Part shown: positions 462 to 63,687 of the stretch, piece by piece | Layout of the letters: the number at the start of each line of letters is the position of its first letter | Numbering within the stretch: position 1 is the first letter of the stretch | NCBI GenBank assembly: GCA_001724265.1 | Contig: MEDY01000087.1 | Coordinates: 1-64,000 of the forward strand | Reading direction: 5' to 3' | Origin: Rhizaria sp. SCN 62-66 | Taxonomy: Eukaryota | DNA: 64,000 nt | Notes under the pieces: generated by a model | Told to the model about the DNA's origin: nothing | The model's database searches: none | What the model saw: the letters and a program-made list of their open reading frames with translations, nothing else | Translations under genes and position numbers: made by a program

Positions 462-3400
462 TTAGTAGTCTGCGTAGGCCGTACCTGCGTTCGCCGACCG
501 CGGGTCGTCGTCGTTGGCGTCGTCGAGGTCGATGTCGAGCGGCGAGCTGTACTTGCCCTTCTTGCGGCCGCTGGCGTTGTCGTCATTGCCAGCGGTGAGG
601 TTGAACAGCGGCATGCCTCCGGGGTCGCGACCGCCGGGCGCCGCGAAGGACCCGCGGCGCGAGCCGGGCGCGCTGCCGGAGACTGGCACGCCGCTGCCGA
701 AGCCGCCGCGCGTGACGCCGGCGCCGCCGCGCGTGACGCCGACGCCGCCGCCGCCGAACCCGCTCTTCTGGTCGCCGATGCTGCTGCTGTTGTTGTTGTT
801 GTTGGCCATCGCGACGCCGCCGGAGGCAGTGATGCCGGGCAGCACGCTGCGCGCGGCGGCCTGCGCGGCGGCGAGCGCGGCGGCTTCCTGCTTCTTGGCC
901 TGCGCGCGCGCGCGGCGGGCGATGTACTCAGGGTGCTCGGACATGCAGCGCGCCTCGAAGGCCGAGGCGAAACGCACGGCGTACTTGGCGGGGTCGATAA
1001 ACTCGGACCCAGCCTCCTGGCGGCCCCACCACAGGTCCCATGCCATCTGCGAGTCGAACTCGCCGAAAATGTCAGAGATGGAGAGGTAGTAACAGATGGC
1101 GTCAGGGAACATCTCCTCCTCGATGTCGTCCCAACGCGACGACAGCACGCCGCCCGCCTCGAGCGTCCAGTTGGACGACAGCGCCGTCACGTCGGGCGGG
1201 TAGATGTCCAGAGGCGGCAGCTCGCCCAGAAGGTCGTCGTACCGGTCCTCCTCCTCCTCGGTCATGCGCGCCACATCCTCGTTAAGCACGGTGAACTCGC
1301 GCTCACGGGCACCCAGGCCATAGCGCGCGCCCAGCGAGCGCGGCGCCTCGAGCGTGCCGTCGAGCGTCTTCTTGTCCGTGACGTCCTGGTGCGAGACCGA
1401 GATGGAGACGCGGTAGCCGAAGGCCGACACGCGCGCGAGGAACTGCAGATCGCGTCGCAGCTGCGAGACCATAAGGCGCAGCTGCTGCGGGCGCAGCGCG
1501 AGCTCGAGTTTGTGCTCGTCGGCGTCGGCGTCGTAGTAGACGGGCACGGACTGCTTCGTCAGCGCATCGGGCGCCTTAGCGGGCGGCGTCGCGCCGTTGA
1601 TCTCGTAGCGCCAGTGGACGTAGCGGTCCGTGCTGACCGGGTTGCGGATCACGACCATGTACTTGCCGCTCGGAATGATGGGCGTGCGGATGTGGTACAT
1701 ACCGATGATGCGGATCAGGAACGAATCCGCGCGGTGCTCGGTAATGTGCTCGTAATACTGCCGCATCCACGACGCGAAGAAGCGCGCCTGCTTCTCCGAT
1801 AGCGTCTGCACCCAGAACTGGCCCGTCGACGTTTGCCACATCGTCTTGCGGTCCTTGCCGCGGCCCGAGCCGGCGCCGGTGATTGCACCACCGGGCGCGG
1901 GGAAGCCCGCGGGCCCGCACAGCTCGGCGTCGTCCTCGTCTGTGGTCTGGAGCACCCGCACGAACGTCTCGGCCGTGCCCATCTCGAGCACATACTCGGA
2001 CAGCGGGATGCCCAGGTGGCGCCGCAGCCGCGCGAAGACGGTGGGCGCCAGCTCCTGCAGCACCACCGTCGGCTCGCGGTCCGCGCGCGGACGCAGGTCT
2101 GCGGCGACGGGGGAGAACTTGTCGACGACCGATACAGCGGTAAACTCGTCGCGCGAGGGCTCGCTGTAGTCGCCCATCGAGTCGAGCGCGATCTCGGACG
2201 AGACGGACGACACGCGGACGCCGTACTTAAGGTTGTTGATGAGCTCGAACCAGAGGTGCGCGGGCGTGGTGGGCTCGGGCATGTCTGCGATCTGTTCCTC
2301 GTCCGACCTGCCCATCGTGGCCGTGCGCACGCGCTTCTGCTCGCTGCGGCGCGCCTCCTCGGCCTTGGCCTCCTTCTCTTCCAGGTGCTTGTCGCGGCGG
2401 CGCTGGTCCTGCTGGCGCTCCTTGACCAGCAGCGTCGACAACAGCGGCATCGCGTTGTTGTTCATGCGCTGCGTGATGTCCTGCAGCACCTCGCGCCGCG
2501 CCTCGGCCGCCTGCAGCGCCAGCTCGCCCTTAGCGTCGTCCTGCGCGAACCCGTGCGGGCCCTGGGGCACCATGGCCGCGGGCACGCCGCGCTCGTCGGG
2601 GAACTCGGGCTCGTCGCTCAGGTCGAAGCCGTCCTGGATCAGCTCCGCGGGCGCCGGCTGCAGCGTCCACTCCGCGCTGGGGTTGCTCTCGTTGTAGCTC
2701 TCGGTGGCGCCCGTGATGTAGGCCATGACGGACTTGAGCGCCGTCCACCACTGCTGGCGCTGCTCGTGCGAGTGAGCCTGCAGTGACAGCACCACGGCGC
2801 CGGACCCGCCCAGCCCCTTGGGGTGCGTCTTGATCGTGAAACACAGCTTATCCTCGGCGCCCACGGCGTAGGACTGCGTGCCGGGCTGCGAGCCCTGGAA
2901 CATCTCAGCGACCTGGAGCAGGTGGATGCGGTTCACGGGCGCCGACCGGTTCTCCGCCTGCGCGGCGTCGCACCACGCTAGCACGGGTCCGTTAGCCCAC
3001 ACGCGCACCGACGCCGTCTCCACCACCGCCTTGGGCTTGATCTTGGCCAGCGACGCGCGCGGTGGCCGCACTGTGTGGCGCACGAAGACCTGCCCCTTCG
3101 TGGTGAAGTCGGGCCACATGGCGCGGAGGTCGGCCGTGTCGATGGCGAGCGCGAGCGCGTAGTCGACGCCGTCGAAGTTCTCGGGCGTGGCCTCCTCTTC
3201 GGCGAGCTCGGCCGCCGTCTCGTCAAACAGGGCCTCGGGCGCGGCGTCGAAGGGATCGACCCAGGTCTTGGCGCTCTGTGCAGGGCCGATGTACGGCGGG
3301 TTGGTCTCGAGGTCCTTGAGGACATCGGGGAAGAGCACGTCAGAGATGATGCGCGACGGCAGCAGATGGATGTTCGGGTCACCGCCCGCGCCGAGGGTCG

Positions 3401-3583
3401 GCTCGGGACGCAGCCTAGACAGTGGTGAGCAAGAGCATTGCAATCGAGGAGTGAGCAAAGGTTTACGGGAGAGATATCGACAATGGCAGAGATCAGAGAC
3501 GACAGCCATCGAGGCTGAGCGACGGCAAGGTTGCTGAGGAGTACGTACACGTCAAATGTGTTAGTAAGGGCGCGATGAGACAT
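462..3583 (-). CDS. PH-domain + phosphatidylinositol-phosphate kinase (PIP5K/PIP4K)-like protein, probably catalytically degenerate; exons 3583-3549, 3414-462 (~995 aa)
   Basis: PH-like segment (RIHLLQVAEMFQG...CFTIKT...LSLQAHSHEQRQQWWTALK) followed by PIPK-fold landmarks (ELAPTVFARLRRHLGI, SFLIRIIGMYHI, QLRRDLQFL, YYLSISDIF, IDPAKYAVRF). GTACGT..TAG intron 3548-3415 joins ATG 3583 in frame; ends TAA. Confidence 0.8.
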
Positions 3584-4405
3584 GATGCGCTGTGTAGTCG
3601 CGACAGGCTATCAGAGCAACAACGGGCACAGTCGGTGTGGAGTACGACTGGTGAGACGTGAGCCAGAGCTGTCAGTTGACACTGAAGCTAGCGGGCGTTG
3701 CGAGACTGGTGCAAGACCAAGTCGGGTGCTTAGCAATAGTTTGAGCAAGGAATTAGCTTCGTTCAACTGATGTATCTCTATAGACCCTTGTGGGAGTGAT
3801 CGGGTGACCTGTAGAGCGGATGAAAGCAAGTCAACGAGAGCGAGTGCAAACGCGGGTTGAAAAGAAGGGAAGATTGCAAGATAAGGTGAGGTCCGCAAGT
3901 ATTACAAATAAAAATAAGAGTGAGTTACAGTGTGTACTATCTAACGGTCGAGAAACAAGATACATCGATGTTGAGCTGTATGCTTAGCGCATGACCGAAG
4001 AAGGAGCGAAGGAGGAGACGAAAATAGACGAACGTTGGTTCGTAAAAAGTCGCTCCAAAGGGGACCTTCTGGACGATAAATAGCCTGCTCATACGGCTTC
4101 TTTCGAGCGTCAACAATCCACTACTGCTAATGTATCAAATTATTTTGTTGATTTCTTATACCCTTTACAATTCTATCTTTGGCGGACATTTCCTTCCTAA
4201 CCAAACCCAGCTTTCTGTTTCACCTCCTGTCCTATCTCTTTCGTCCTGTTTCCAGGTTCTCTTTCCGCCCCACTCGCGTCCCGCACCTACCACCAGACCC
4301 CCTTACCTCCCACCACGCTGCGTGCCTGGGCGTCTTTTTCCAGCTCCGCGTTGCCGCCCTGCTCCAGACAGACCTCCCCGGCTGTGCAAGCTCCCGCTTC
4401 GAAGG

Positions 4406-5269
4406 ATGTCATCACCGTCTTCCGTTGTCTACCGCGGCACTAGCAACAGCAGTGCCCACGACGCGACCGCCGTGGCCCCCGCGAGCGTCACCGACCGCGC
4501 GGTGTCGTTTTCAGAGTCCAAGCCGTTTAATTGGCGCCGTAACCGCGTCCGCGGCGGCGCCCCTGCGACGGACACTGAGCGTATCATCATGTTCTGCCTT
4601 GTTATGATCTTTTGTGGTGCACTCGTCACTGGTATCATTGGAAGCACTCTGTACATCCTCAAGGTTAATGCCAACGTACGTAAACAACGCCAGTCAATTT
4701 TTTCAATTGTGTTGTTCCGCATTCTCCTCTATCGTTTGATCCTGTGCATGTTTGCGGTGTCTCTTGCTTTTTTTAAAATCATAGCGAATGTAGCTCTCTC
4801 ACTGTCTTCCTTCTATGCTCTTTGTTTTGCATGCTATCCACAGTCGAACCTGCGCGTCACGACGTGCGAAGTTATGTCTGTGCAGCTGGCTGACGACCTG
4901 GTTTGCCAGTTCGAAAAGTGCATCAACACCGAGTGTAAGCTGGAATCGCAGAAGTGCTTCGAGCCCCAGTGGGAGGTCCAGTATGGCGAGGTCGACTCAG
5001 AGGGCGAGGTGCTGCACCGCAAGGTGCGCGCGTGGATCACGGACTCGTCTTTCCGCGACAAGACGGTTGCACTCGGTCGTCTTAAGACGTACGTGCCGGC
5101 CAAGAAGTACAAGTGCAGCTACGACGCCAGCGACGTGGCCAACGTCACTTGGGGCCACGACGACCCGGAGCCGTGGATGATCACCATGATCGTCGCCTGG
5201 TGCGTCATTGGGCTCTTTCTCTGCGCGATGGGCTTTGGCTGGTTCTTCAGCAAGTCCCGCGATGTGTAA
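4406..5269 (+). CDS. Two-transmembrane protein with Cys-rich extracellular loop; exons 4406-4675, 4844-5269
   Basis: Hydrophobic helices IIMFCLVMIFCGALVTGIIGSTLYIL and WMITMIVAWCVIGLFLCAMGFGWFF flank a Cys-rich loop; AT-rich 168-nt GTACGT..CAG intron; ends TAA. Start chosen where GC-rich codon usage begins. Confidence 0.7.
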   Translation: MSSPSSVVYRGTSNSSAHDATAVAPASVTDRAVSFSESKPFNWRRNRVRGGAPATDTERIIMFCLVMIFCGALVTGIIGSTLYILKVNANVRKQRQSIFSIVLFRILLYRLILCMFAVSLAFFKIIANVALSLSSFYALCFACYPQSNLRVTTCEVMSVQLADDLVCQFEKCINTECKLESQKCFEPQWEVQYGEVDSEGEVLHRKVRAWITDSSFRDKTVALGRLKTYVPAKKYKCSYDASDVANVTWGHDDPEPWMITMIVAWCVIGLFLCAMGFGWFFSKSRDV

Positions 5270-8700: not shown

Positions 8701-9340
8701 CGCGCAGGTCGCCGACACGCCCTACATCCTGAAGCGTCAGACGCGCGCCAAGGGTGCCAGCGCTCCCTCGTCGCACTCTGCCGAAGACTTCGGCGCTGAT
8801 AGCAACGATGCTCAGGTATGTTCGCATTATTTGTTTGTTACCACTCGTTCACATTTCCTGGTGTATTACATGTTACGATTCAAATCATATCCCTAACATA
8901 TATGTCGTTATAATCTTTTTGTCTTGTTTTGTCTCATTTTGCAGGAGCTCGTGAAGCGCATCGACGCCCTCGTGCTCTCGCCCCGCCCCGCTAAGTCTGC
9001 CGCCCCCGCCGCCGACTCTGAGGAGGACTCGGGCGTGCAGGCTATTTCACTCGACTTTGACGATGCCGAGACCCCCGCCGCGGGCGCCCTCGACTACGAC
9101 CTCATCGCTGAGCTCGCCAAGAACGTCTACGCCTCGGGCAAGGCCAAGAAGGTCTTCTCTGACTGGTCCAAGGGCTCCAACCTCGTCACCAAGGACCACT
9201 TCGCCGACGGCTCCATCTCTTCTGGCGTGCGCTTCTCCGACGACCAGATCGACGTCGTGTTCGAGCATTTCGACAAGGACGGCAAGGGCGCGCTGTCCTT
9301 CAGCGAGTTCATTCGCCTCCTCGCCGCCAAGCAGCAGTAA
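5758..9340 (+). CDS. Multi-EF-hand calcium-binding protein with PGG-type motifs; exons 5758-5893, 6182-7791, 7917-8297, 8420-8815, 8945-9340
   Basis: EF-hand loops FARFDKTNSGSILPIEF, FKSIDEDLDGFVSVQE, FALFDPDADAKADYKE, FEHFDKDGKGALSFSEF; four GTAYG..AG introns preserve the frame; strong C/G third-position bias; ends TAA. Confidence 0.85.
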
Positions 9341-10192: not shown

Positions 10193-10755
10193 TCACTGAG
10201 CGCCCGTGGCGGCGTTGCCCTTGACGCTGTCGATGCTGGCAGGCTTGGAGAGATTCTCCTCACTAAACGCAATCGGCATGTTGAGGCCCACGTAGCCGGC
10301 GACGTTCTTGACCTGGTTGAGTTGGGGCTGTGAAGGGCAAGAGACGGACAGAGCAAGGGATACATGGGATGGAGTGAGGCGTGAGCAAGATGATGGTGTC
10401 GAAAGAATGAGGCCGATGAGTTATACAAGTAAACAGACAGTAACCACATCATGCCATTGCTTATGTCACAATATGCGTTGCTTCGTACCTTGTTGAGGCA
10501 CCATCCGCCGTCGAACATGGCCTCGGCGTGCTTGGTGCTGCTGGTCATCATAGTGATGGCGTCGGCCGCCATGAGGTAGTTGCGCCAAGCGGTCTTACCG
10601 TCTGTCACGGGCTTCTGGTAAAGCTTGCGGAGCTGGTCGACAAAGACCGAGTCAAGGGTGGACTCGCGAGCGCGGATGCCAGTGAGCTTCGGGTTCGAGG
10701 CGCGCACCAGAGAGCGGTACGAAGCCAGCACAAGCTTCTTGGAAGGGCCGGACAT
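10193..10755 (-). CDS. FMC1: FMC1-like LYR-family mitochondrial ATP synthase assembly factor; exons 10755-10489, 10327-10193
   Basis: N-terminal LYR-like LASYRSLVRA; the spliced C-terminus QVKNVAGYVGLNMP resembles the FMC1 'V..A..VGL.LP' motif; intron GTACGA..CAG; ends TGA. Confidence 0.65.
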
Positions 10756-11484: not shown

Positions 11485-12222
11485 TTAGATCTTGTTGAAG
11501 GCAGCAATCTCGACGGAGCCGACGCCGGGGAGCTCGGAGATGGTCTCCTCCATCCAGTCAGTGGAGACGAGGACGTTGCGGGCTCGCGGCCCCACTCGAG
11601 ACCCTCGCAGTTGACGCCGTAGATGGACTGGGCGAGCTCGTCGAGGTCGACGTCAGTGTCCTCGGGCTTGATGTCGAAGATGACAGTGGACTGCTCCTTA
11701 GCGACGTTAGCGGCGGTCTTGGCGTCGTACGCGGCCTTCTTGGCGCGCGCGGCCTCCTCCTCGGTGTCGAGGTCCGACGAGTCGGAGTCGCTCGAGTCGG
11801 AGCCGGAGGAAGAGGATGAAGAGGAGGAGGAAGAGCGGGCGGCGCGGCGGCGCTTGACGGGCTCCTCGTCCTGGGGGCCGAAGACCTTGGAGAAGTCGAC
11901 GGGGGCCTGGGACAGAGCGGAGCAACGCAGAGAAACACGGAGAGCATAGATATAGATGAGTATTGAAATTAAAGCAAACACAGAATACAAAAAACATCAA
12001 CGCTAGCGGAGTATCCGGTGTACGATGCCATATGAGTCAAACCTAATGCAGTATCTAGTGTTATTAGGAATGCCATCATACCTGGTAGAAGGAGGCGATG
12101 CCGTTCTTGGTGCCCTTGGCAGCCTCAATCTTGGCCTTGGCCATAGAGGCGATAAGGGTGACAGCGGAGCTGACCTCGTTGTCGAAGAAGGCGGCGACGG
12201 AGTCCTCGGTGGAGAGAGACAT
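11485..12222 (-). pseudogene. Translation elongation factor 1-beta/delta family gene with an internal deletion and frameshift at ~11580 (pseudogene or assembly error); exons 12222-12082, 11906-11485
   Basis: Acidic linker then GEF domain STVIFDIKPEDTDVDLDELAQSIYGVNCEGLEWG; the diagnostic C-terminus VSTDWMEETI..VGSVEIAAFNKI-TAA is in a different frame. Confidence 0.75.
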
Positions 12223-12862: not shown

Positions 12863-15800
12863 TTACGCGCGCAGCTTGCTGCCACCCACACCGCCCGCCG
12901 CGGCGCGCGCAATTCCGGCGACGGTGCCGACCCCTGCCCCGCCGGCCTGCTGCACAAGCGCGGCGCCCGAGGTGCGCGTGACGGTGGAGACCGATGCGAA
13001 GTTGGGCGGCGCGATCACGGGCCCGCGGAACAGCAGCGCTGGCTGCTGCGGGCCCTGCGGTAGCTGCCCCGCGTGCGCGCCCGCGGCGTTGGCGTCGGGG
13101 TTGGCCACGGCGGCGCGCGGGATCGCGAGCGGCTCGGGCGCGGACGGGTAGGTGCGCAGCGAGGGCCGGGCAACAGGGTACGACGCGATCAGCGCCAACT
13201 CCTGGCACACTGCGGCCTCACGGCTGCGCGCCTTGCTGCCGCTGTTGCTGTTGCTGTGGACGAGAGCGACGTGGGCGCGCAGGGCGGCCGCCGGGGTGGC
13301 CTTGTCGTCGAACATGCTGTCGGGCAGCGCGTCGATAAGTTTGGCCGCGTTGTGCGTGAAGTAGCGCTGCGCGACGAGGATGGGCAGCGCGGCCGCAGTG
13401 GCCGACTGCGCCGCCGGGAGCAGCGCCGAGGCCGGCGCGGGCAGCACGAGGCCCAGGAACGAAGACGAGGACGAGACGTTGAGCAGCGGGACATGGGTCA
13501 GGTGCGCGGAAGTCAGGCCGCCCCCGTCGGCGGTGCCGGCGCGGCTGTGCGAGCGGCGGCTCGAGCTGCGGCCGCCGCTGCGGCTGCTGGTGCGCAGGCC
13601 GCCGAACGCGCTGGGGACGGCCGCGGGATTCGCGGCAGCGCTCGCGCTCGCGGCGAAGTTGCCCGCGCCCGTGCCGGCGGCGTTCGCGCGCGCGCTGGCG
13701 GTGCTCGAGGGGGCGAAAGGGAAGCCCGGCGCGAGGGGCGCCAAGACGGGACCACCCTTGGCAGGCGCAGCCGCACTGCCCGCAGCCACAGCAGCGCCAG
13801 TGCTGTTGGCGGTGGGGTTATTGCCGCCCGTAGCGGTGGTTGGACGCACTGCCGAAGACAGCGGCCGGCGGTGGGTCACCGCACCGGCGGCGTTGCCTCC
13901 GTGGCCCGCGGCACCGCCGGCGCCCGCGAGCGCGGAGCTGCTGTTGGGGCTCAGGAACTGGCTGTGCGCGGCGGCGACGGCGGGGTGAGCGAACACTCCG
14001 GCGGGGACCACGGGGCCCCACTCAGCGCCCGCCCAGTCACCGACAGCCGCACTCACATTCGCCGCGCCCACGCCCACGCTCGCACCAACAGTGTTGCTGA
14101 CGGCTGCGGCTGGCGCGAGTGCAAACCAGCCCTGCGCGAGGCAGTGCAGGTAGCGCCGGTAGCCGACCTCGGTCGGGCACGACGGGGTCAGCACGGGCAT
14201 GAAGTGCGGCGGCGGCGCTGCGCCGTGGCCGCCCGCGTTGTTGAGTACCGCGATGGGCAGCAGCAGCCCCGCGGCGGCGCGCGGGGAGAGCGTCGACGGG
14301 GGCAGGAACGGCAGCGCGCCGTGGCCACCATTGCTCGACGACTGCAAGCTATTGTGAATAGCGGCCGTAGGGAGCGGGCGGAGCGCGGGGAGCAGCGCGG
14401 GCGGCAGGGGCTGTCCGTTGGCGGCGAGACTGACGCTGACAGCGCCGCCGACGGAGCCGGTAGCAGCGACGGGACTCGCGCACGCGGTGTCGTTGGCGGC
14501 AGACGGACTCACAGTAGGGGCAGCAGCAGCAGCAGCAGCAGCAGCACCGGCGGCCGCAGCAGTTGTGGTTACAGTCACCGTCGCGGTCGCGCTGGCGGGC
14601 ATCGCGCTAAGGATCTCTGCGCGCACGGCGGCCCGGATGGCCTTGTGGTCAAAGCGCACCTGTCCCAGCCCGCCGAGGCCGAAGACGGGGAACGCGCCGG
14701 CCAGCGCGGCCGCGGCCGTGGGCACCAGCGTGCCGTTGGCGGGCGCCGATGACAGCACGTCGTGGAGCGTGGCGAGCTTCTGCGAGCGCGAGAGGGAGAG
14801 CTCACGGCGCAGCAGTGCGAGGCACGAGAGGAACTGCAGCAGCTGCTCGGGCGTGAGCGGCGAGTCGAGCCAAGTCGCCACGCCGCTGCTGCCGGAGCAG
14901 TCGGTGAGGAAGCTCTGCTGGCTCACAGAGGCACTCTCAGCGGCGGCGTTGCTTGCGTTTGACTGGGAGAGCGAGTTGATGTAGAAGTCGAACAGAGCCA
15001 CCGTCGCCGCGTCGTCCTCGGAGAGCGGCAGCGCCACGGGCACGGGCACGCCACTCATGACGGGCGCAGGCGCAGCAGATGCGTCAGCACCAGCGCTAGC
15101 AGCAGCAGCAGAAGCGTCAGTCACCGCAGTGGCGACGGCGATGCCAGCGCTGAAGCTCGCAGCCGTGGGGCTGGGCGCCGTCGCCGCAGCGGCAGCGGCC
15201 TCGGCGGCGGCCGCAGCGCCGCGCTTCACCGCGGCCGCCGCGGCTTCGGTGACCGTGAGCAGTGCGTCGACCTGGCTGGGGTACGCGAGCAGCAGCTGCA
15301 GCAGCGCCTGGCCCACGAAAACAGCGGCGCGGTGGGCCGCGAGCAGGATTGAGAGCTCGGAGACCACGAACACGGGGGAACCGTTCTCATCCTCGGCGCC
15401 GCCGTAGTCGTTGGCGTTGTCGTCAGCGGCAGCGTCGGCCGCGCTGGCCTCGGCCGCCGCTGCAGCAGCGGCAGCAGCTGCAGCAGCGGTCGATGCGTGG
15501 GCAGCGGAGTTGCTGAGCGCGGAAGCGAGCGCGGCCTTCTCGCCCTTGCTCCGGTCGCGCCCGTCCGCGCTGCTGCTGCTGCCGCGCGCACTGCCGCTGC
15601 CGGCGGTGGAGCTGCCGCCGCGGCGCGCGGCCGCGCGGACCTGGTCGGCGGCGAGCGCCTCCTCAAGCTCCTTGCGGCGACGCTCCTCCTGCTGTTTGAG
15701 CACACGGCGGCGCTCTAGGTCCCACAGCAGGCGCAGCTTGGCCTGGCGCACGAAGCGCGTCACAGTGGCCTCGTAAGCGGCCGCCACGGCGGCGCTGGCG

Positions 15801-50102: not shown

Positions 50103-51200
50103 AGAGCGGTAGATGCAGGAGCGTGCGCCTGAGGACGGGAGTGAGATTGGCGGCCCGGCGCAGATCTCTGGCGCGAAGGGGCGAGAGGAGGAAACAAGAC
50201 CTGGATTTTCAAGAGCAGGAAGCTCGTTGGTTCCAATGTGTTCGGGTAAATAGGTCTGATCAAGTATGAAGGAAATGATTGTCATGTTGTGAGTGCTTAC
50301 GGGGTAGATTCTGTGGCGCTAGATAGTAAAATAAGCGAGTTGGACTTCGCCAAGGTGGAGTCTGGACGATCGAAAGTAGATCCGCCGATTGAATTTGGAG
50401 CCCCAGAAACCGTCACTGAGTCATGAAAGAAAAGCAACATTCGTGCATATATAATATGTAGGTATTTTAAAAAGCATATCCTGCACTGGGCACTATAGAA
50501 GGCTATCAGTCGAGTTCACACTAAAATCGCTGACCGCGCCGAACTTGCCCCCGAGATCGTAGAACTACCAGTTCGCTCTGCAAACCCATATGTATGCGAT
50601 GCATACAAATGTATATAATTGCTTCGTAATGTACAATATGTGAACTCTTGATCGCCGTGTTTGTGTAGAAATAACCACGTTGCCTTATTGCGTAAATCTC
50701 TTCTATGTGAAGCGTCGGTCTTGCGGTGAGTGGAGGTGCGTAACTGTTTGTGCCACAGAAATAACAAAATTGGATATGTACACGCCCTCCTTAAGAGCAA
50801 TCTAATTAAATCAGAGTTATATTACGTAAAATGCATCGAATAAACATGATGTATGACTGAAAAGAACTATTGTATCCGTAATCACGCAATATATCCCTCC
50901 CCCGTTCGGTTGGACTCGCTGAAATGGTCGAGGCGACCTCGAACTCAGGGGGTATTTCTTTGTTTTTTTGTGTTGTTCATGTTATTTGTTGATATAAGTC
51001 TCGTATTTGCCTGATTAATTGCATCAAATGCGTATGCGTTGCTCCAAACCTCTCATATAAAGATCCACAGAGTCAACGGTGTGTTTTCTCTTTTTTCTTC
51101 GCCTTCGCTCACAAGCCACGCAAAACGTCTCACAAACGCACAAGGTAGCGGTATTGTGGCGATCTGCTTCTCGAACTTGCTTCCACACGCGCCGAGTCGC

Positions 51201-51991
51201 TTACTTGGAGCTGTGCTTGCGGTGCATAAGGTGCTTGCCGACCTTGAAGCTACCCTTGGAGCTGTTGGCGGCGGCCTCGACCGCCTTGCGGCGCGCGATG
51301 GCGTTCTTGACGGCCTCGTCACGGCGGTCACGCTCGCGCTCGGCAAGCTTGGCCTTGCGCGCCTCAAGCGCGGCCGTAGAGCCGAAGACGTTGTCGTCCA
51401 TGGTGCGGCACGCCTCGCGCTCCTCCTCGGGCGTCAGTGACGTGATGCTATTGCGGCCGACGAAGACGGGCAGCGCGGCCAGGTCCGGGATCACGGGGCC
51501 CGTCACGTTGAGTTTGCTCTGCGGGGGCAGGAAGAAGTGGTGGCCACGGGCAGTCTTCTCGATCATCTGGTCGTCGGCGAGGTCGAGCTGCAGAGGAGAT
51601 AGGAAGCGAAGAAGGGGCGACAAAGACGAAGAGCGAGGAGTGAGCGCGAGTCGAGAAAGAAGTTTAAATCGGGTGCAGAAAGAGCAAAATGCAACAAATA
51701 CGCGTGAAACTGCAGCGTGGTGTAGGATAGATAGTATTGAAAGGGAATATTCATGATGCAAAAGAAATTAAGGGTGGGAAGGCGTACCAGGTCGGCCTGC
51801 GCGGAGGCGGCGGCAAGGTCATCGGAGATGTGCTTGCCCTCGGCGGCCAGGCGACGGGCCTCGCTGCGCGCGACGTAGGCAGTCATGCGCACGCCGCGGG
51901 ACTCCTGGCGCGCGTCGCGGGTAGGTGCAAACTCACTGCGGCGGGCCGCACGGTGAGTGCGCTTGATCTTGGAACGGATAGACTTGGCCAT
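51201..51991 (-). CDS. LLPH: LLP homolog (LAPS18/LLPH family) basic nuclear protein; exons 51991-51788, 51587-51201
   Basis: N-terminus MAKSIRSKIKRTHRAARR matches the family signature MAKS(L/I)RSK.KR..RA.KR; basic C-terminus; 200-nt GTACGC..CAG intron; ends TAA. Confidence 0.7.
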
Positions 51992-52633: not shown

Positions 52634-54285
52634 TTACCAGTCCATGGCGAGGCCGATGCTGAACCCGGGCTTGCCGAGGGCAACGCCGCCCTTGGCGACA
52701 ACGGGCGACGCCAGGTTGAGCTCGAGCCGGCCGAATGGGGTGGGCAGCGCGAGTCCGGCGCCCACGCTCGCGTGCATGGCCTTGGACAGCGCGCCCGCGC
52801 CCAACCAGCCGGGGAGCGAGCCGAAGCCGGCGGACGAGAGGCCCGGGTGAGCAGAGGCGACGGCACCCACGTTGGCAAACACCTGCGGGCGCACGGCCAG
52901 GGACGCGTAGCCCGGGAACGGGGCGGAGAGCGCGAGGCCCGCTGAGACGAAGGTGTCGCCGCCGAGCGCGTTGGACTTGGCATCCTGAAAAAAGGAATGG
53001 ATATAGATATAAGAAGGAAAAAATAGTGTGGTTAGTGAAGCGTGCATCATGAAAAAATACTCAAGCAGCGACTTAGAAACATCACAGATATTACAAAAGT
53101 AAACTTTCGCCTCATAAGTGTCAGACATAGCAAAGATATACTCTGTGAAACGCAACATACCTGGGGCGAGATCTCGCGGGGCGTGAAGCCGCGCACGAAG
53201 AGGTTGTTCTGGAAGAACCGGTCCGCGATCGGCACGGGGGGCGCGCGCACCACGGGCGCGTTGACCGATCCCGACATGACGGCCGTGCCTCTCGCGCCGG
53301 CGCCCGCGTCGCCACTGCCGGCGCTGCCGGTGAGCGCGGCGGGGAGGCGGGCGAGCGCGTCCCAGGAGCGGACGACGCCGCCGCGCACGGTCAGCGCGGC
53401 CGTCACGGCCGAGCCGGCGACCGGACGCAGCCACTGCGCAAGGCACTCGACCTTGGTGAAGGCGACGTCGCCGCCCAGCCCGGCCAGCTCGGCGCGCACC
53501 AGCTTGAGCGCGCCCTCGGTCGGGAAATGGGCGCCGGTAAACTCGCCGTCGGCGCGCGTGTCGACGCGGTAGGCGTACTTGAGCGCGTTCTTGGTCGTGG
53601 GCGCGAACGTCTCGGAGAGCACCTCGGGGGTCGCGCGGGCCGAGTGCTCGGCGGCGAGCGAGTAGTGGCGGAACGCAGACTCGATCTCGACGTTGTGGAC
53701 GCCCGACGCTGAGGTCATGCCGGCCGAGACGCCAGTTGAGGTGCCCGTGAGCGAGCTGTAGTACGCGCGGTTGTGCGTCTCCTTGAAGACAGTGATGGAG
53801 TTGGTCGAGGTCGAGTCCTTGAAGAGCGGGAGCGAGTGCAGCGACGCGCGGACCGAGCTGAGGTTGACACCCGACAGGCCCTCGTTCTCGACGTTGCACG
53901 ACAGAGTGAGCCCCTCGCCGTGGCCGACAATGTTGCGCATCTCGCCCGTCACGGAGCCCGTCGTGGAACTGCCGTCCGTGGCCTGGAAGATGCCAAAGGT
54001 AACCGTGAAGCGCGTCTTCTCCTTGAGGTCGATGATGACGTCGACGTCGCCGACCTCGCCCGACTCGGCAGAGTCGACATAAGCAGCGATGTTTTTGAAC
54101 AGATTGGTGTGAGAGAGCTCGCGCATGGACGATGAGATGTTCTGCGTAAGAGTACCGACGTCTTTGGACTCTGGGATGGACTTGAGCTTGTTGAAGATGA
54201 ACGAGTCGGCCGTGTGGTCATTGCCTTCGATGATCACGCGCTGCACACGCACGGGGTCGTAGGACACGTTGACCGATTGCGACAT
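52634..54285 (-). CDS. SAM50: Mitochondrial outer-membrane beta-barrel assembly protein Sam50/Tob55 (Omp85 family); exons 54285-53161, 52984-52634
   Basis: POTRA domain (VRVQRVIIEGNDHT...LFKNI...VDVIIDLKEK), RNIVGHGE, IADRFF..VRGF, ALGGD, SVGAGLALPTPFGRLELNL and a C-terminal beta-signal-like FSIGLAMDW; ends TAA. Confidence 0.88.
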
Positions 54286-55107: not shown

Positions 55108-58100
55108 ATGTTGCCTTGTGCGCATTCGCTCCGCGCCATTGTGCGCGCTTTTGTGGTAATTGTCGCGCTGTGCTGCTGCTGTCTCCAGCTCGCCCGCGGC
55201 CTCGACTTTGACCCCTACAAAGTACGTATTCTCGCATATATCACGCCGATGACGACGCATCATCATAACCCTTATATATGAGCATATAAATTACATTGCA
55301 TAATGTATATTCAAATTCTGATACGAAAATGCACTATTTCCGAAGAAACCCCCTTCGTACATTTTCTCATGCATGCATCTTGTCTCTTATTATTACCTGA
55401 CCACCACATCGCACTCCGCCGCACGTCACAGACGCTGGGCATCCGCCGCACCGCGACGGCGGAGCAGATCAAGCGCGCGTACAAGCGTCTGGCGCTGCAG
55501 CTGCATCCGGACAAGAACCCGCATGAGTCGGCCGCCGAGCAGTTCATCCGCGTGCAGCGCAGCCACGAGGTGCTGTCGGACCCTGCGCTCCGACGGCGCT
55601 ACGACACCACGGGCTCCGTCGACGATAACGCCGCCCAGCAGCAGCAGCAGCAGCAGCAGTGGCAACGCTACGGCCAGGGCCGCGGTGGCGCGGGGGGGTT
55701 CTACTACCACCCGCAGTCGCCGCACAGCCTGTTCCGCGCGCGGCTCGAGAAGTATTATGCCTCCCCGTCGCGCTTCCCGCCCGCCGTTGTGCGCCTCCGT
55801 GGGGAGAGCTTCCCTGCGCTCGTCGCGCGCGCGCCGCACCCGACCGACACCACGTTCTGGCTCTTCTTCCTCTTCTCGGACAACTGCCCCGCTTGCGCCA
55901 GCGTCGAAACAGCCTTCCTGACGGCCGTGGCCGCGCTGCCCGCCGTCGCGCGCTTCGCCGCGATCCACGGCGACTTCGAGGCGCCCTTCTGCACGCAGGT
56001 GCTTAAGGTGAGCCGCGTGCCCGCGCTGCTGGGGGTGACGGTGAGCCCCGAGGGCGAGGTGGCCGTGGTGGCGCCCGCGCTCTCGATCCCGCTGGGCATG
56101 GCGCCCGCGGCCAGCGCGCTGGGCGTCGAAATTGTGCGCGAGATGATGGCCGCGGCGACGGCCAGCGACGGCCGTGGCGGCATCATCGAGCTGCTGCACA
56201 CGGCCAACGTGCGCGCTCACGGTCACTCGGGCGGCTCGGCCCACGGCCAGTACGCCGGCTACGGCACGGGCGGCTTCACCAGCCAGGTGCCGATGTCGCA
56301 CGCTGCGCTCGCGGCGAATATCCGCACCGTGTTCGACTTCGCACCGGTGCCTGCGGCGGCCTACGCGGCGCACCCGTCCACCTTCACCAAAACCAACATC
56401 AACAACCACAATAACAAGCACGACCGGAACAAGCGCGGCGCCGCGGCCGAGAGCGAGCTCAACGACGCCGTCGGCGGCACGGCGCCGCCGCTGCTGAGCC
56501 TCGGTGCGGTCGGCCAGTCGCTCGGCGCCAGGCTCAACACGCACGTGTGGAACACGCTCGCCAAGTACGCACATCAAAACACCTAATGCAACAATTATCA
56601 GCAGACATCGCACCTAATTAAGACCAGAATTCAATATGATATCAATTTCACGAAGTACCATTTGTGTTATCTCAAATTCATGATGTTAATCTTTTTTGTT
56701 TGTGTCGACTGTTCTTCTACTGTTCTCCTCCAGGACCTGGGCGTCCCCGCCGCTGCTGACGCAGCCGCGCATCATCACGCCTTGGCCCCCGTCCTCGTCC
56801 TACCTCTCATCCTTCTTCTCCTCGGTCTACAGCGTGCTTGCCTACCCGTTCTCGCCCTCGGCCTCGGCTGCCGCGGCCGCGCCGCTGCCCGCCTATCTGC
56901 TCCGCGCCAGCCCCCAGTCCTCGGGCGCGTACTTCCTGCTCGTCACCCGCGCGCCCAAGCCCTCGGCGACGCTGCGCCACGTCGCGCGCGCCCTCGCCCA
57001 CTACAACGCCCGCTTTGCGCACGTCTGTCTGTCTTGCGTGGCGCGGCCGGCCGCGGCGGCAACGCTGCTGGGGTTGTCGAAGGAGCTCGACACGACTGAG
57101 CCCGCGGTCGCGGTCAAACGCGCGATGCACACGCCCCTCGCCGTCATCGCAGGCAAGCGGATCCCCGCCGATCTCACTCAGCAGCAGCAGCAGGGGGGCT
57201 CGGGGGCCGGTGACGCCGGTAGTGGCGCGACGACCGGCGGTGTGAGCGTGCTTAACAGCGTGAATCTGTTGTCAAGCAACCGCCACCAATCGCTGTCGCA
57301 CGTGCCCACCGTGCCCCGCGGCGCGCGCGCGCTGCTCAACGTGTTGTGGCCGCACCGGTGGCCACTGCTGCCCGAGGTGACTGGCGAGAGCTACCACGAA
57401 CTCTTCCTCACGGGCCAGCTGGCGTACCCCAAGTACGTCGCCCCGCTCGAGATCGACAGCAACGGCGACACCCTGCTGCGCGCTGCGGCCCACGGCCACC
57501 GTGGCGACAGCTCCTACGGCAACAGCCACACCGCTAACAGCGGCGAGGAGGAGGACGACGACGAGGACGACGGCGAGGACAGCGAGCGCAACGACGACAG
57601 CGCCGAGGCCGCCGCGCTGCTCGCCGCGGTCCGCGGCTCCGGCTTCACGAGCCTGCCGCTTGCCGTGCGGCCCGGCGCGCGCCGCGTCACGGAGCTGCTG
57701 CGGCGCCGCAAGCCTGTGCTGGGCGTGTGGCTCATCCCGCTGCGCCCGGACCTCCCGCCGCCCGCCGCCGCCGCCTCCTCCGGGGCCGCCGCAGCGGGGG
57801 CGGCAGGCAAGACGACGATGCAGGGCCAGAAGCCCGTGATCATGACCGCGGCGGCGGCAAGCTCCGGCAAGAGCGCCGTCGCGGCCGCGGCTTCGGCGGC
57901 CGTGCCCGCCGGGTCCGCCGCGGAGCTTAACGCTGGATACAAGCTGATCCAGGATAGCCACGCCTCGGCGCTGCAGCCGCCGGCCGCCGCCGCAACCTCC
58001 GGGGATGTGACCGTGGGCGGCGCCGACGCGCGCCCTGTGCCGGTGGCAGGCACACAGGAGGTTGTTGCGCTGCACTGGAGCAGGCACAGCGAGCTGCTGG

Positions 58101-58843
58101 CGAAAAAAGGCAAGTTTGCGTACGTACAGCTGGGCTGGCTGCACCGGCACGAGCAGAGCGCGTTCGTGGCGTCGCTGCTGCAGTCGCGCATGAAGACCGC
58201 CCTCGGCAACAATGGCAACGCGAATGCGCACGGCAGCGGCAATAACAAGCAGCAGCAGTCGGGCCGTGGCGGCCGTCGCTCCGACTCGAGCTCGAACGGC
58301 AACAGCGGCTCCAGCGGCTACAAGGGCGGCATCGACCTCACGCTCGACTCGATGGTCTCCCAGTGGTACCGCGGCCATCACCACAACAATAACAACAACC
58401 CCAACAGTCCGCAGTCGTCCGCGGCCGCAACCGCCGGCGCCGAGGCCGTGGTCGCCGTCGCGGTGGACGCGGCGGCGCGGCGCTTCTCGCTCGAGGTGCT
58501 CGAGGCGGGCGCGCTGCCCGCGTGGGTGCGCAGCGTCTACTACGGGGACGAGCCGCTGCGCCACCGCCTTGAGACACCCGCGCCCGACGACAAGGCCACC
58601 GCGATCCGCCGCAGGACGGCCGCGGGGAGGATCACGCTCGCCTTCGCCGCGGTTGGCGAGGGCGTGTGGGACGCGCTGCAGTCCGTCTTCGGCTCCGGCT
58701 CCGGCTCGAGCGGCAACAGTGGCGCCAGCGGGTCGCTGAGACCGGGTTGGTTTGGCTGGCTGGACGGCACGACTGTGCTGATGATGTTTGTGACGATGCT
58801 CGTGCTTGCGATCACGACGCTCAGCGTCGCCGTGCTCAAGTAA
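55108..58843 (+). CDS. DNAJC16-like ER J-domain protein (signal peptide, J domain, thioredoxin-like domain, C-terminal TM); exons 55108-55221, 55432-56564, 56734-58843
   Basis: Hydrophobic leader then DFDPYK|TLGI...IKRAYKRLALQLHPDKN...RRRYDTTG; CxxC in FSDNCPAC; terminal TM VLMMFVTMLVLAITTLSVAVL; two GTACG..CAG introns; ends TAA. Confidence 0.82.
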
Positions 58844-59795: not shown

Positions 59796-60423
59796 ATGGA
59801 CGTACGTAACAACAGCGCGCATAAGGCAATCGCATCGCAAGAGAGTGGTTATCGTGTATACTTGTATATAATTTTTGAACATAATTATTCGCAATAGCTT
59901 GCCCTGTTCTTGTCTGCTTCAAATTCATCTCAGATTGCACCTTGCTCTTGTCGCTCTTTCCGTTGCTGCACTGTGTAGGCCCCTGCGCTTGTGAACCCGA
60001 AGCCGTTCCTGGCGAGTCTGGTCGGCAAGGCTACTGTTGTTAAGCTTAAGTGGGGCATGGAGTACCGCGGTATGTCATTTTGCAGCAAGCACCTCGCGCT
60101 GCATTGCGCAATCAATCAAACATGTCTGTCCAGTGCCACACTGATGTTACCGCCATGTGATTCTGCATATAATGAACATCTAACTAACCATGTGGTGCTT
60201 TCTACATAGACTTGTGCTTGCAGATGTTTTATCTCACTTGTTTATCAACAACTTGTTTTTTTCCCACTTCCTTTCAGGCTTCCTGGTCTCTATCGACCCC
60301 TACATGAACCTGTACCTCAACGCCACTGAGGAGTGGAGCAACGGCAAGATGCAGGCCGAGCTGGGTCAGACCCTTATCCGCTGCAACAATGTGCTCTACG
60401 TCACCGCTGCCGAGGGTCAGTGA
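59796..60423 (+). CDS. SNRPF: Small nuclear ribonucleoprotein F (SmF); exons 59796-59801, 59979-60069, 60278-60423
   Basis: [38 protein letters not shown]...[11 protein letters not shown] is the SmF signature; ends TGA. The 6-nt first exon is inferred from an ATGGAC|GTACGT donor. Confidence 0.93.
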
Positions 60424-60767: not shown

Positions 60768-62039
60768 ATGTCCGACTTGGCAACTCTTTTAAAACATATT
60801 GGTGTTATCAGCAACCTCAACACTGAGGACGCAGTGCTTGATTTCATCCTCAATGGCGTTGACTCCAACAACACCGTCTACGCCGACCGCGACATCGCCG
60901 CCAGCAACGCCGCGCAGCGCCCCGGCCCCTTCAGCCGCTCGCTTGTTGATGCCATGGGGCTTGGCAGCTTTAAGCCCGGCATGTTGTCCGAGGCCGAGAT
61001 CGAAGCCGCGCTCGCGGAGGAGGCCGTGGAGCTGGGGCTCGAGCTTGAGGTGATCCGCAGCATCAAGACGCGTGAGGTCAAGGCGCTCACGCTCGGTACG
61101 TTCATTTTTGAATCAAATCAAAATAATCGGCTTTGTCTTATCTTACATTGTTTCATAGGTTGGCGTCTTGCTTTTATTTGTATGCCTCGCTATGGTATTG
61201 TGATATCTTACTTGTTTTCTTCTTATGAGCGGCGTGCTTTTCCAACACCTTCGATCTCATTTCTCTTGGACCTGCGTCTCTGCCTCTTTATAGCCAACGC
61301 TGAGACCGCCCGCCAGGAGGCCCTCGAGTCTGCCATCGCGGTGTTCACCGCGCTGATCACCGAGTGCCCCGACTACGCCTCCGCGCTGAACAACCGCGCG
61401 CAGGCGCGCCAGCTGCTCGCCATGCACCTCGTCAAGCAGCAGCAGAGCGTCGAGGAGGCCGCCGCCAATGCCGCCGCGGGCCCCGCCACCGCCGCCGCCG
61501 CTGGCGATGAGTCTGCTGAGCCTGCCGCGCCCGCTGTCGCAGTGTTCCCGTCGACGCCCGAGGGTAAGGCGGTGGTGCAGAAGGCGCAGATGCTGCAAGT
61601 GACGGCGCTAAGCGACCTGAACCAGGCCATCATGATCTGCCACAAGCTCTACAACAAGCTCCTCGCGCGCCGCCGCCAGGAGAAGGCCTCCGCCAAGAAC
61701 GCTGACGCGAGCGCTGCCACCTCAAACGGCACTGCAACTGCTACTGCTAACGGTGATGATGTGGACGACAGCGGGTACCGGCCGCCGCGCGCGCTGCTGC
61801 AGGCGCTGTGCCAGCGCGCGGCGCTGCACCGGCTGCGCGGCAACGACGAGCAGGCACTGCTGGACATGCACAAGGCGGCCGAGCTGGGGTCGGCCTGGGC
61901 GCAGCGCGAGCGCGCGGCGATGCACCCCGTCGCGCAGCTCAACAGCGAGATGATGGGCGAGATGCTGCAGATGGCCAACGCGGAGATCGCCAAGGAGAAG
62001 GAGGGCAGGGCCAAGGACGCTCAGGGCAAGGGCGAGTGA
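60768..62039 (+). CDS. TTC36: Tetratricopeptide repeat protein 36-like; exons 60768-61095, 61294-62039
   Basis: YASALNNRAQA, ALSDLNQAI, QALCQRAALHRLRGNDEQALLDMHKAAELGSAWAQ and HPVAQLNSEMMGEML (cf. TTC36 NPYAALCN.ML); 198-nt GTACGT..TAG intron; ends TGA. Confidence 0.78.
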   Translation: MSDLATLLKHIGVISNLNTEDAVLDFILNGVDSNNTVYADRDIAASNAAQRPGPFSRSLVDAMGLGSFKPGMLSEAEIEAALAEEAVELGLELEVIRSIKTREVKALTLGTFIFESNQNNRLCLILHCFIGWRLAFICMPRYGIVISYLFSSYERRAFPTPSISFLLDLRLCLFIANAETARQEALESAIAVFTALITECPDYASALNNRAQARQLLAMHLVKQQQSVEEAAANAAAGPATAAAAGDESAEPAAPAVAVFPSTPEGKAVVQKAQMLQVTALSDLNQAIMICHKLYNKLLARRRQEKASAKNADASAATSNGTATATANGDDVDDSGYRPPRALLQALCQRAALHRLRGNDEQALLDMHKAAELGSAWAQRERAAMHPVAQLNSEMMGEMLQMANAEIAKEKEGRAKDAQGKGE

Positions 62040-62436
62040 GAGCGGTGATAGTCCGTGTTGCGCGTGTGCTGCTAAAACTTGGTGTACTTCTTTATGTATG
62101 AGTGAAAAAAGATGGTCACAAGTCAATAAATTCTCCTCTTTTGTTTTAGTGATTTTATAATGTAAAATAAACTTTGTGGGATGTAAGCTAAGTATTTAGT
62201 AGCATGTCTCGTATTATTCAGATTTTATAACTCAGGACAAGGGAATGTGTAACATGCGAACAATTAATTTAAATCAACAGAGTATATCATCGAAAAAGAA
62301 ATCTTTCACAATCAAAATACGAAATTAGATATATAAAAATATTTTCTATTTCACATATCAGTATCACTAGCAGAACACAAAATTACATCACTGATTTAGG
62401 CACATTTTTCTTTTTAACTCTTTAAAAAGGCGTCAC

Positions 62437-63687
62437 TCACTGCCACGTCGGCCGCTCGACCGCCTTGGCCGCCGCCGCCGTTGTGCCCCCCGCAAGGCCG
62501 CCGGTCTTGGAGCCGTTCATAGCGCCCCACGTAGCCCTGGCCTGCGGACTGGGGTCGATAAGCACTTCGAGCGCGACCTTGAGCTGCGCGTCCGAGAGCG
62601 AGCCTGACGCGCCCGGTGGGTCACACCAACCGCGCGCGCCGCCGCGCGGGGCCGCGCACTGCGAGGGCAGGTACACACCGCGCAGGGGCGCCAGGTCGAC
62701 GGCAACGCGCGACTTCATGTCCTGGAGCGACTCAACGCGTTTGGTCGTGGCGAACGGCACTGGGTGGCGCGCGGGGGCGTCGTGCAGCCACACGCGCCCT
62801 CCGTCGCAGCCGGCCGACGCCGCGCCGCTGCCGATGTGACCGTAACTGTAGCCGTGGGGCGGTTGCGTGTGGCTCGCGCCGGGGAACGTGTTGTAGCTCT
62901 CGCTGCCGCGCGGCGCGTCCTGCGCTGCCGCACCGTTGACGCCGTTGCTGCTGCGGCGGTGGAAGGCTTGTGAGTAGATGTCGGCGAACACCGAGGACGG
63001 CAGCTCGCGCAGCGCGGCCGCCATAGACCCGCCAGTCACGGCGCCAGCCGCGGCGGCGCGGCCGTGGGGCGCTCGGCCGGACTGGCCGCCCTGCTGCTGC
63101 TGTTGCTGCTGTTGCTGTTGAGTAGCCTTCTCGGCAGCGTGCGCGTGCAACACGGCGGCAAGCTGCCGCGTCACCAGCGCGCGCGCCGTCGCCGCCGCAG
63201 GATCGCTGCCGTTGGCGCCGGCGCTAGCGCTACCTCTGGGGTTCGCAGCAGCCAGCCCTGAGTCTGCGAGGCTCGCGCCGGTGGCCTCAGCGCGCCCCGC
63301 GGCCGCGGTCGCAAACACTGTACTGGCGCCGGGGCCAGTGCCCGGCAGCCGCTGCCGCGCCGCGGCGCGACTCGCGGCCGCTGCGTTGGCCTCCGCGCGC
63401 GCCGCCGCCGGAGCCGCAAGCGACGCGACCGAGGTGACGAGCGCGCCGTCCCCGTCGGCAGCCGCGCGCCGCCGGGCCGCCGTGAGCGCCGCCGTCTGCG
63501 TGCGCGCCGTGGCCTCGAGCGCGCGGACCAGCTGCGCGCGCGCGGCCGAGTGCGCCTCGCGGAGAGACATCTCGCGCAGCGCGGCGGCAAAGCGCGTCTT
63601 GTCCGCAAACGTGGACTCGGAGATGATGTCGTCCACGGCCACGGGCGCCGCGGGGTTCACGAAGCCGGGCGGCGGGGCCGACAGGGA

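Follow-up and report, generated by a model that had tools for sequence, protein, structure and literature searches.

In this study, we analyzed positions 1 to 64,000 of contig MEDY01000087.1 (assembly GCA_001724265.1, Rhizaria sp. SCN 62-66), a 64-kb stretch that is called the window hereafter, with a focus on two adjacent genes that each contain an in-frame TAG: a methyltransferase gene on the forward (+) strand and a large, Myb-like gene on the reverse (-) strand. The window is nuclear DNA of a eukaryote, with GC-rich exons (GC content at third codon positions, GC3, close to 0.85 for most genes) and non-coding DNA that is AT-rich, and its overall GC content varied between 0.47 and 0.74 per 4 kb. 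An earlier note on this DNA had proposed that UAG serves as a rare sense codon in this organism and that UAA and UGA are the terminators. We observed that both frames stay coding-like past their TAGs, that no intron encloses either of them, that the TAGs recur in other assemblies and that no gene of the window ends in TAG.

Two genes with an in-frame TAG

The methyltransferase gene (33984-35636, +) consists of three exons (33984-34361, 34500-35030 and 35184-35636), separated by intron 1 (34362-34499, GTACGA..CCATAG) and intron 2 (35031-35183, GTACGT..TCACAG), and has the TGA at 35634-35636 as its end if the TAG is read through. This TAG (TAG no. 1, 35358-35360, context CAA TAG GAA AGC) is carried by exon 3, and the coordinates and the continuing frame assigned to it in the earlier note proved correct when re-checked. 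Splicing restores the S-adenosylmethionine (SAM)-binding motif I, VIEIGCGTALPS, across the junction (..ATVIE|IGCGTALPS), and a single frame is kept into TAG no. 1. Apart from this TAG the gene carries no lesion, and both introns keep their consensus sites.

With regard to the identity of the gene, exon 2 matched the Pfam family Methyltransf_25 below the cut-off (E=0.0043), and exon 3, either read through or in halves, matched no Pfam family. When 1.84 billion representative proteins were searched with exon 2, only two were recovered, the organism's own open reading frame (ORF) and an orthologue of 487 aa (P0123), and a word-based search with P0123 found only P0123 itself. In a pairwise alignment, P0123 was collinear with exons 1 and 2 and the start of exon 3, residues 1-30 of exon 3 aligning to its residues 242-271 (E=2e-5). 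Comparison of P0123 with PDB entries gave EEF2KMT (E 4.8e-5), PRMT3 (E 3.3e-5) and METTL21D (E 0.002), and its score against Pfam Methyltransf_16 was 18 bits, below the cut-off of 21. From these matches it appears safe to classify the gene with TAG no. 1 as a class I (seven-beta-strand) methyltransferase; the label of a Methyltransf_16/EEF2KMT-like subfamily is not settled. The gene of P0123 itself (contig L001) ends in TGA and contains no in-frame stop. A further protein, P0124 (136 aa, from an 18,087-base contig), which represents the genomic copy of this gene in the relative, diverges from the intron-free P0123/L001 directly past ..GWPALM, at the position of intron 2 in the window, which suggests that the position of this intron is conserved between the methyltransferase genes of the window and of the relative. 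An AlphaFold2 model of P0123 made with no alignment was unusable (mean predicted local distance difference test score, pLDDT, of 39.7), and a complex prediction that combined four methyltransferase pieces with the post-TAG peptide gave no answer (score 0.02) and counts neither way.

Past TAG no. 1, another 91 codons (35361-35633), ending ..DETVVMLYLMVPNCFLSNSSR, can be read before the TGA at 35634-35636, and the other two frames of this stretch hold 3 and 8 stops. Shuffles of the stretch's own bases gave a probability of 0.0055 for 91 open codons, and past 15 other stops, which served as controls, the frame was open for just 2-58 codons. The GC content was 0.55 before TAG no. 1 and 0.48 after it, and 0.35 and 0.28 beyond the TGA; the drop to the non-coding level occurs at the TGA, not at TAG no. 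1. We also scored the stretch with a codon log-odds model that had been trained on the weakly biased genes of the window and was set against a non-coding model. The 91 post-TAG codons scored -2.4, compared with +2.8 for exon 1 and +2.0 for the pre-TAG part of exon 3 in the same gene, whereas 33 non-coding windows scored between -59.7 and -11.6 and 10 post-stop stretches between -50.0 and -18.5. The sequence after TAG no. 1 is coding-like, and its open continuation is not due to chance. The orthologue runs for 216 residues beyond its last aligned block and has the C-terminus ..SSLVQLLLLVPA / ..GGGPYGSSLVQLLLLVPA, with a hydrophobic ...VP motif; the frame of the window ends in a P0123-like manner (..ETVVMLYLMVPN.. 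/ ..DGTTDETVVMLYLMVPN..) only when TAG no. 1 is read. The best local alignment between the post-TAG peptide and the P0123 tail placed C-terminus on C-terminus, with p=0.12 against shuffles when unrestricted and p=0.004 when the comparison was confined to the final 30 residues of each sequence, a restriction that was chosen post hoc, after the match had been seen.

The large gene (35967-50285, -) comprises 4,772 codons, ends in TGA at 35967-35969 and contains no detected intron. Its TAG (TAG no. 2, 42138-42140, -, codon 2716, context ACT TAG CAG GAG) was confirmed at its previously described position in a continuing frame and is the single stop in the 4,773-step frame, with 2,056 open codons downstream. 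The product is low-complexity nearly throughout, being rich in Ala, Ser and Gln, with Asn runs and an HGG repeat; a Pfam Myb_DNA-binding domain was found at residues 1859-1900 (E 6.2e-6), upstream of TAG no. 2. The CAG/GCN repeats of this gene draw contigs of many other organisms, so that depth reached up to 4,550 in the bin 40672-41338. When metagenome contigs were scanned with the 567 residues surrounding TAG no. 2, pattern matches arose in 56 stretches, of which none was confirmed, and an exact look-up of four possible ORF products of the gene in the protein collection found none of them. The weak codon bias noted before in both TAG-containing genes was borne out (GC3 of 0.51-0.71, versus about 0.85 elsewhere). 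We also noticed a lower-GC block at 32000-44000 (0.47-0.59 per 4 kb) that takes in the methyltransferase gene and the distal half of the large gene, and within which GC3 was 0.51-0.55, compared with about 0.85 in most other genes.

Terminators, introns and lineage of the organism

Terminators were re-derived for all 13 gene models that do not depend on the UAG hypothesis, with gene identities taken from Pfam where a family matched (PIP5K, EF-hand, MORN, PI3K, DnaJ, LSM and part of EF1_GNE). TAA ends the genes named PIPK (462-464, -), two-transmembrane (2-TM; 5267-5269, +), EF-hand (9338-9340, +), EF-1beta (11485-11487, -), MORN (12863-12865, -), PI3K (21986-21988, -), LLPH (51201-51203, -), Sam50 (52634-52636, -) and DnaJ (58841-58843, +), and TGA ends FMC1 (10193-10195, -), SmF (60421-60423, +), TTC36 (62037-62039, +) and the last gene (62437-62439, -). 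The earlier tally of nine TAA, four TGA and no TAG among these models was correct at every terminator, and since the large gene ends in TGA, the count becomes 0 TAG in 14 (9 TAA, 5 TGA). The p of about 0.02 that had been attached to 0 of 13 holds if TAG is assumed to make up 25% of stops (P=0.024) but not at a share of 10% (P=0.25), and the terminator argument is weak when taken alone. For 0 of 14, P ranged from 0.02 to 0.49 depending on the assumed TAG share. In raw ORF maps the other in-frame stops were a TGA at 29938 and a TAG at 24016, both inside clear AT-rich GT..AG introns of PI3K. GC followed 7 of the 13 terminators checked (TAAgc/TGAgc), and the bases after the three in-frame TAGs, which include a strain variant described below, are GA, CA and GT. 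One of the 13 genes, the EF-1beta-like gene (11485-11996, -), is not intact: its EF1_GNE match covers profile positions 2-34 of 88, its C-terminal ..VEIAAFNKI* lies in another frame, 13 codons past GLEWG, and the exchange domain lacks approximately 18 residues. A pseudogene, a divergent paralogue and an assembly lesion could each account for this.

The introns of the window share a uniform architecture. Ten listed introns are 101-198 nt long, have a GC content of 0.34-0.41 and carry a GTACGN 5' site and a YAG acceptor, and an eleventh, in Sam50, has the 5' site GTATGT; examples lie at 23612-23742 (-), 29908-30078 (-), 35031-35183 (+, intron 2 above) and 56565-56733 (+). The 5' splice site is strikingly uniform, being GTACGN in 10 of the 11 introns seen. 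The possibility that the TAGs are spliced out, which the earlier note had raised, was examined at both sites. None of 450 GT..AG pairs enclosing TAG no. 1 had a GTA[CAT]G 5' site. Around TAG no. 2, none of 114 frame-keeping GT..AG pairs had GTACG, and the lowest GC content among them was 0.52; two of the 114 start with GTATGA, but their GC content is 0.56-0.58. No credible intron encloses either TAG, and because the intron features are uniform and absent around both, splicing is an unlikely explanation as judged from the sequence. We also rejected a 30-base GTAACC..CTTAG intron that would remove TAG no. 2, as it is too short (compared with 101-198 nt), has a GC content of 0.60 and lacks GTACG.

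DNA of this organism recurs in metagenomes from bioreactors, wastewater and activated sludge, in samples from several years, and between 0.76 and 1.00 of sampled words were present in four runs from three studies, and one of these runs may be the source. Runs X5-X10, in which word shares were small, did not enter into the statement of habitat. The longest contig recorded for the organism measures 162 kb. The best named matches of the PI3K C-terminus were Plasmodiophora (44% identity), Leptophrys (44%) and Paulinella (41%), and identity with Cercozoa sp. M6MM was 59% along a portion of the sequence. A tree of this single gene, built by a quick search, placed the window sequence in a clade (Shimodaira-Hasegawa-like approximate likelihood ratio test, SH-aLRT, 99) with all five named rhizarians and no named non-rhizarian. 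By this placement, which rests on one gene and a quick tree search, the organism is assigned to an uncultured rhizarian from bioreactor/wastewater metagenomes. A scan of genome contigs for more DNA of the organism returned two eukaryote fragments, L003 (1-2051) and L004 (1-2255), both distant, with 35% and 66% identity to the window protein. They are filed under bacterial metagenome-assembled genomes (MAGs; Saprospiraceae and Alphaproteobacteria) yet encode fragments of eukaryote-type PI3K, so that these MAG bins contain eukaryote contamination. They do not come from the present organism, and a scan of viral contigs for more of its DNA found nothing.

The TAGs in other assemblies and in strain X4

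TAG no. 1 was unchanged in the JGI contig L002, which is identical to window positions 33013-38787 at 5775 of 5775 bases, in record 3 of run X3 (35179-38787, no differences) and in record 9 of run X4 (32398-36670), for which all 12 differences are listed and none falls at the site; of the four assemblies with this TAG (window, L002, X3 and X4), some may share samples. A scan of metagenome contigs with P0123 returned only L001, from the relative, and L002 (5,775 bases, inside the window). TAG no. 2 is crossed, with 39 bases to spare, by record 13 of X4 (39588-42179), which has no listed difference at the site. Because one of the seven differences of this contig is unlisted, the presence of TAG no. 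2 in X4 is probable rather than certain; the seventh difference probably lies in a high-depth CAG/CAA repeat, below the 10% share filter. The earlier note had considered that other data might show CAG or TTG at the two sites, and the other assemblies carry TAG at both (at TAG no. 2 as far as differences are listed).

Run X4 belongs to a separate study, dated 2025, and its strain differs from the window at 0.2-0.6% of positions. The compared runs consist of contigs, which drop minor variants, and strain differences were counted among those listed, with 22 further ones across the four runs. TAG no. 2 probably predates the split of the window and X4 strains; if so, the lineages already carried the TAG when the strain differences downstream of it arose. 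Of the 10 listed X4 differences downstream of TAG no. 2, seven fall at third codon positions (p=0.02) and six are synonymous (p=0.05-0.09). The density of single-nucleotide polymorphisms (SNPs) there was 11 in 5,203 bases (0.21%), compared with 13 in 3,122 bases of non-coding DNA (0.42%, p=0.07) and 14 in 2,355 bases of the upstream part of the large gene (0.59%, p=0.009). Within the large gene, the indel rows and gap counts of X4 were multiples of three, except for a compensating -1/+1 pair at 48468-48471 that sits in a high-depth repeat, and no frameshifting indel was present in the 5.2 kb compared downstream of TAG no. 2, whereas the non-coding DNA of the compared stretch (32398-35966) carries X4 insertions of 24, 1, 2 and 2 bases at 33102, 33564, 35068 and 35071, respectively. 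Small as the numbers are, these patterns suggest that constraint at the level of the protein persists over the distal 2,056 codons.

The comparison also revealed a third in-frame TAG. Codon 4399 of the large gene (37089-37091, -, context ..NGVSWVPSG..) is TGG in the window and TAG in X4; the change, C>T on the + strand at 37090, is seen in one short X4 contig (record 10, depth 5.55) and is one of the four non-synonymous changes listed downstream of TAG no. 2. The earlier statement that TAG occurs in frame only inside two genes stands for the window, to which the X4 variant adds a third TAG in the same large gene.

Readings of the in-frame TAGs and comparison with known systems

We put the probability that UAG is decoded as an amino acid in this rhizarian at roughly 45%. 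If this is correct, UAG would no longer end genes, UAA (the main stop) and UGA would terminate, and ribosomes would read through both TAGs by means of a tRNA with anticodon CUA or an equivalent suppressor. The inserted residue could be Gln, Leu, Trp, Tyr, Glu, Lys or Ser, each one base from TAG. UAG would then be a very rare sense codon, with two occurrences in about 16,000 codons of the window by a rough tally, found so far only where the two genes of weakest codon bias are low in complexity and poorly conserved; such sparse use is the picture that would be expected of early codon capture. The proposal is thus far partly supported. Compared with its first formulation, it has gained the coding-like continuation, signs of constraint beyond TAG no. 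2, the absence of introns around the TAGs, their recurrence, a further in-frame TAG in strain X4 and a precedent in the lineage, and has lost its preference for Gln as the residue. That preference had been drawn from neighboring Gln codons and found no support, and neither TAG aligns to a homologue. Membership in the class of codes with UAG as sense and UAA and UGA as stops is not established; what was found is in-frame UAG within coding sequence, and the window contains no eRF1 gene. Tentatively, UAG codon capture may be at an early stage here, in a GC-rich, free-living rhizarian of cercozoan-like type from wastewater reactors: UAG would already have disappeared as a terminator and be returning, as a sense codon that is still very rare, where constraint and codon bias are weak, with new UAGs segregating between strains (TGG/TAG at 37090). 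By the same tentative joint reading, Rhizaria may have undergone a UAG-only reassignment for a second time, perhaps independently.

Several observations weigh against decoding. First, the evidence comes from a single 64-kb window and from just two sites, or three if the variant is included; the genes concerned are neighbors within a lower-GC block that could be under relaxed selection, and the presence of TAG no. 2 in X4 is, as described above, probable only. Second, neither TAG stands at a residue that is conserved and can be aligned: P0123 offers no alignment at the position of TAG no. 1, a BLASTP comparison of the post-TAG peptide with P0123 gave nothing significant (best E=1.2), and none of 8,000 scored candidate homologues of the region of TAG no. 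2 passed. Third, a random nonsense mutation would yield TAG with a probability of 0.52-0.56 in the large gene and 0.38-0.41 in the methyltransferase gene, both of which are Gln-rich, and three TAGs out of three would arise in this way with P of about 0.12. Because nonsense mutation here gives TAG 38-56% of the time, the fact that only TAG is seen discriminates little. Fourth, with strains only about 0.2-0.6% apart, a recent nonsense mutation would leave the downstream frame undecayed, and the signals of constraint come from a small sample of 10 SNPs. The frame break in the EF-1beta-like gene means that this contig is not free of gene damage or assembly lesions, and if TAG made up 5-10% of stops, finding none in 14 would have P=0.23-0.49. 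Finally, ARAGORN found no tRNA gene and Rfam no RNA family in the 64-kb window. In the polyA library X9, no listed contig covers either TAG; the sole contig from this RNA library in the methyltransferase gene (34399-34670) includes intron sequence and may therefore be DNA or unspliced RNA, which is uninformative on expression or splicing.

The strongest alternative, plausible although we consider it doubtful, retains the standard code and treats both TAGs as premature stops (C>T or G>A) that reached fixation in a bioreactor population of mainly clonal descent. In that case, the methyltransferase gene would be a young pseudogene and the large gene would produce a truncated protein of 2,715 residues, both too recent for decay. 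This explanation accommodates TAG as the likeliest nonsense product (0.38-0.56), the adjacency of the two TAG genes and their having the lowest GC3 in the window, the damage to the EF-1beta-like gene of the same contig and the strain distance of 0.2-0.6%, at which an intact downstream ORF is expected even without selection. The further TGG>TAG stop downstream in X4 is what would be seen in a dead stretch, and as the Myb domain lies upstream of TAG no. 2, a truncated product could still work. However, two fixed nonsense alleles among some 16 genes are many for a free-living organism, and the methyltransferase gene has no other lesion and both of its introns keep their consensus sites. The preference of the post-TAG differences for third positions (7 of the 10 listed), their being sparser than in non-coding DNA and the lack of frameshifting indels over 5.2 kb, compared with insertions of 24, 1, 2 and 2 bases in the non-coding stretch, also speak against premature stops, as does the absence of TAG from the ends of the 14 other genes.

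Site-specific recoding under the standard code, either by leaky or programmed UAG read-through or by adenosine-to-inosine (A-to-I) editing of UAG to UGG (Trp), seems improbable, although the coding-like continuation and the constraint fit it equally well. A C directly after a stop codon weakens termination in eukaryotes, and TAG no. 2 is followed by C; TAG no. 1, however, is followed by G. The TGG/TAG polymorphism between strains involves exactly the pair that UAG>UGG editing would make equivalent. According to two reports on fungal A-to-I editing, a U at position -1 is preferred, UAG and UAA stops are often edited, and editing restores premature stops in 71 Fusarium pseudogenes (PMC11156358, PMC10776026). 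Recoding would leave the absence of TAG-ended genes unexplained, and no RNA contig is listed over either TAG. To our knowledge, such A-to-I editing is known only from ascomycete fungi and not from Rhizaria, which also counts against it.

It is very improbable that TAG is a plain terminator and the gene models are simply shorter, with the methyltransferase ending at 35360 and the 14-kb frame divided into two genes, the first ending at 42138 and the second starting from the ATG at 42077. On this account the stops (9 TAA, 5 TGA and 2 TAG) would form an ordinary mix, an ATG is available 20 codons past TAG no. 2, and in minimal METTL21D-type members about 35-40 residues after strand 5 probably suffice. 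Nevertheless, the open frame past TAG no. 1 (P=0.0055) with its coding-like codon score, and the long tail of P0123 with the same C-terminal motif, do not agree with an end at 35360. The two-gene reading of the large gene is unlikely, as the 60-base spacer has a coding composition unlike the AT-rich non-coding stretches of the window and both long frames lie in one phase, the interval being free of stops. That the TAGs reflect an error of sequencing or assembly, or a heterozygous site at which the assembler picked one of the alleles, is extremely improbable because independent assemblies show the same TAGs, TAG no. 1 being identical in four of them and TAG no. 2 unchanged, as far as listed, in X4 from a different study and year, even though contigs drop minor variants and the X4 assembly is fragmented around 37090.

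If UAG is indeed decoded, the organism would show a sparse, early state of reassignment together with a strain-level UAG polymorphism and would give a rare view of a code change in progress; gene prediction with the standard code would cut short its lineage's proteins when metagenomes are annotated. If the code is not changed, the locus offers a worked example of two young premature-stop alleles that imitate such a change. Recurrence in bioreactor and wastewater samples of several years means that the organism can be re-sampled. Our literature searches turned up no code change reported for a cercozoan that is GC-rich or lives in wastewater, and the terms "genetic code", "UAG" and "stop codon" are absent from the text of a 2025 preprint on Rhizaria transcriptomics.

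Among known systems, nuclear codes that split UAG from UAA are few and include those of one rhizarian, one fornicate and some ciliates. The A-to-I editing of ascomycetes resembles the present case in that TAG-interrupted genes are under selection and the TGG/TAG interchange matches; it differs in being a fungal, stage-specific system. Young pseudogenes share the lone in-frame stop in an intact frame, with TAG as the likeliest product in Gln-rich genes, whereas here there are signs of downstream constraint, no frameshifts, two cases in 16 genes and no TAG terminators. The fornicate Iotanema spirale reads UAG as Gln and stops at UAA and UGA (PMC5304391), phyllopharyngean ciliates include UAG-only reassignments (PMC11687900), and in one ciliate UAA and UAG code for different residues (PMC10553269). 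These codes are similar in uncoupling UAG from UAA and in keeping UAA as a stop, but they belong to other supergroups, UAG is common in them, and the residue was derived from conserved positions together with tRNA or eRF1 data.

The closest comparison is the rhizarian exLh (Sainouroidea, from Lygus hesperus transcriptomes), in which UAG encodes Leu and the stops are 56 UAA and 15 UGA (Panek et al., 2017, PMC5304391). The same source counts 384 UAGs in frame across 71 transcripts, with conserved Leu positions accounting for many of them, and states that UAA ends almost all known genes of the exLh relative Guttulinopsis. In the eRF1 of exLh, the residue equivalent to human Leu69 is Ala. In exLh UAG is already common, and the onset of reassignment is argued from theory (codon capture versus an ambiguous intermediate), whereas the window contains two UAGs in about 16,000 codons, neither of them alignable. 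The only sainouroid genome found, that of Rosculus vilicus, also differs in composition, with 37.7% GC compared with 47-74% per 4 kb in the window, and this species was rejected on GC content as the source of the window. On the other hand, both organisms are Rhizaria with in-frame UAG, and in both UAA ranks first and UGA second among the stops (56/15 in exLh and 9/5 here). In addition, UAG is rarest in the highly expressed genes of exLh (PMC5304391), and in the window it is confined to the two genes whose codon bias is weakest.

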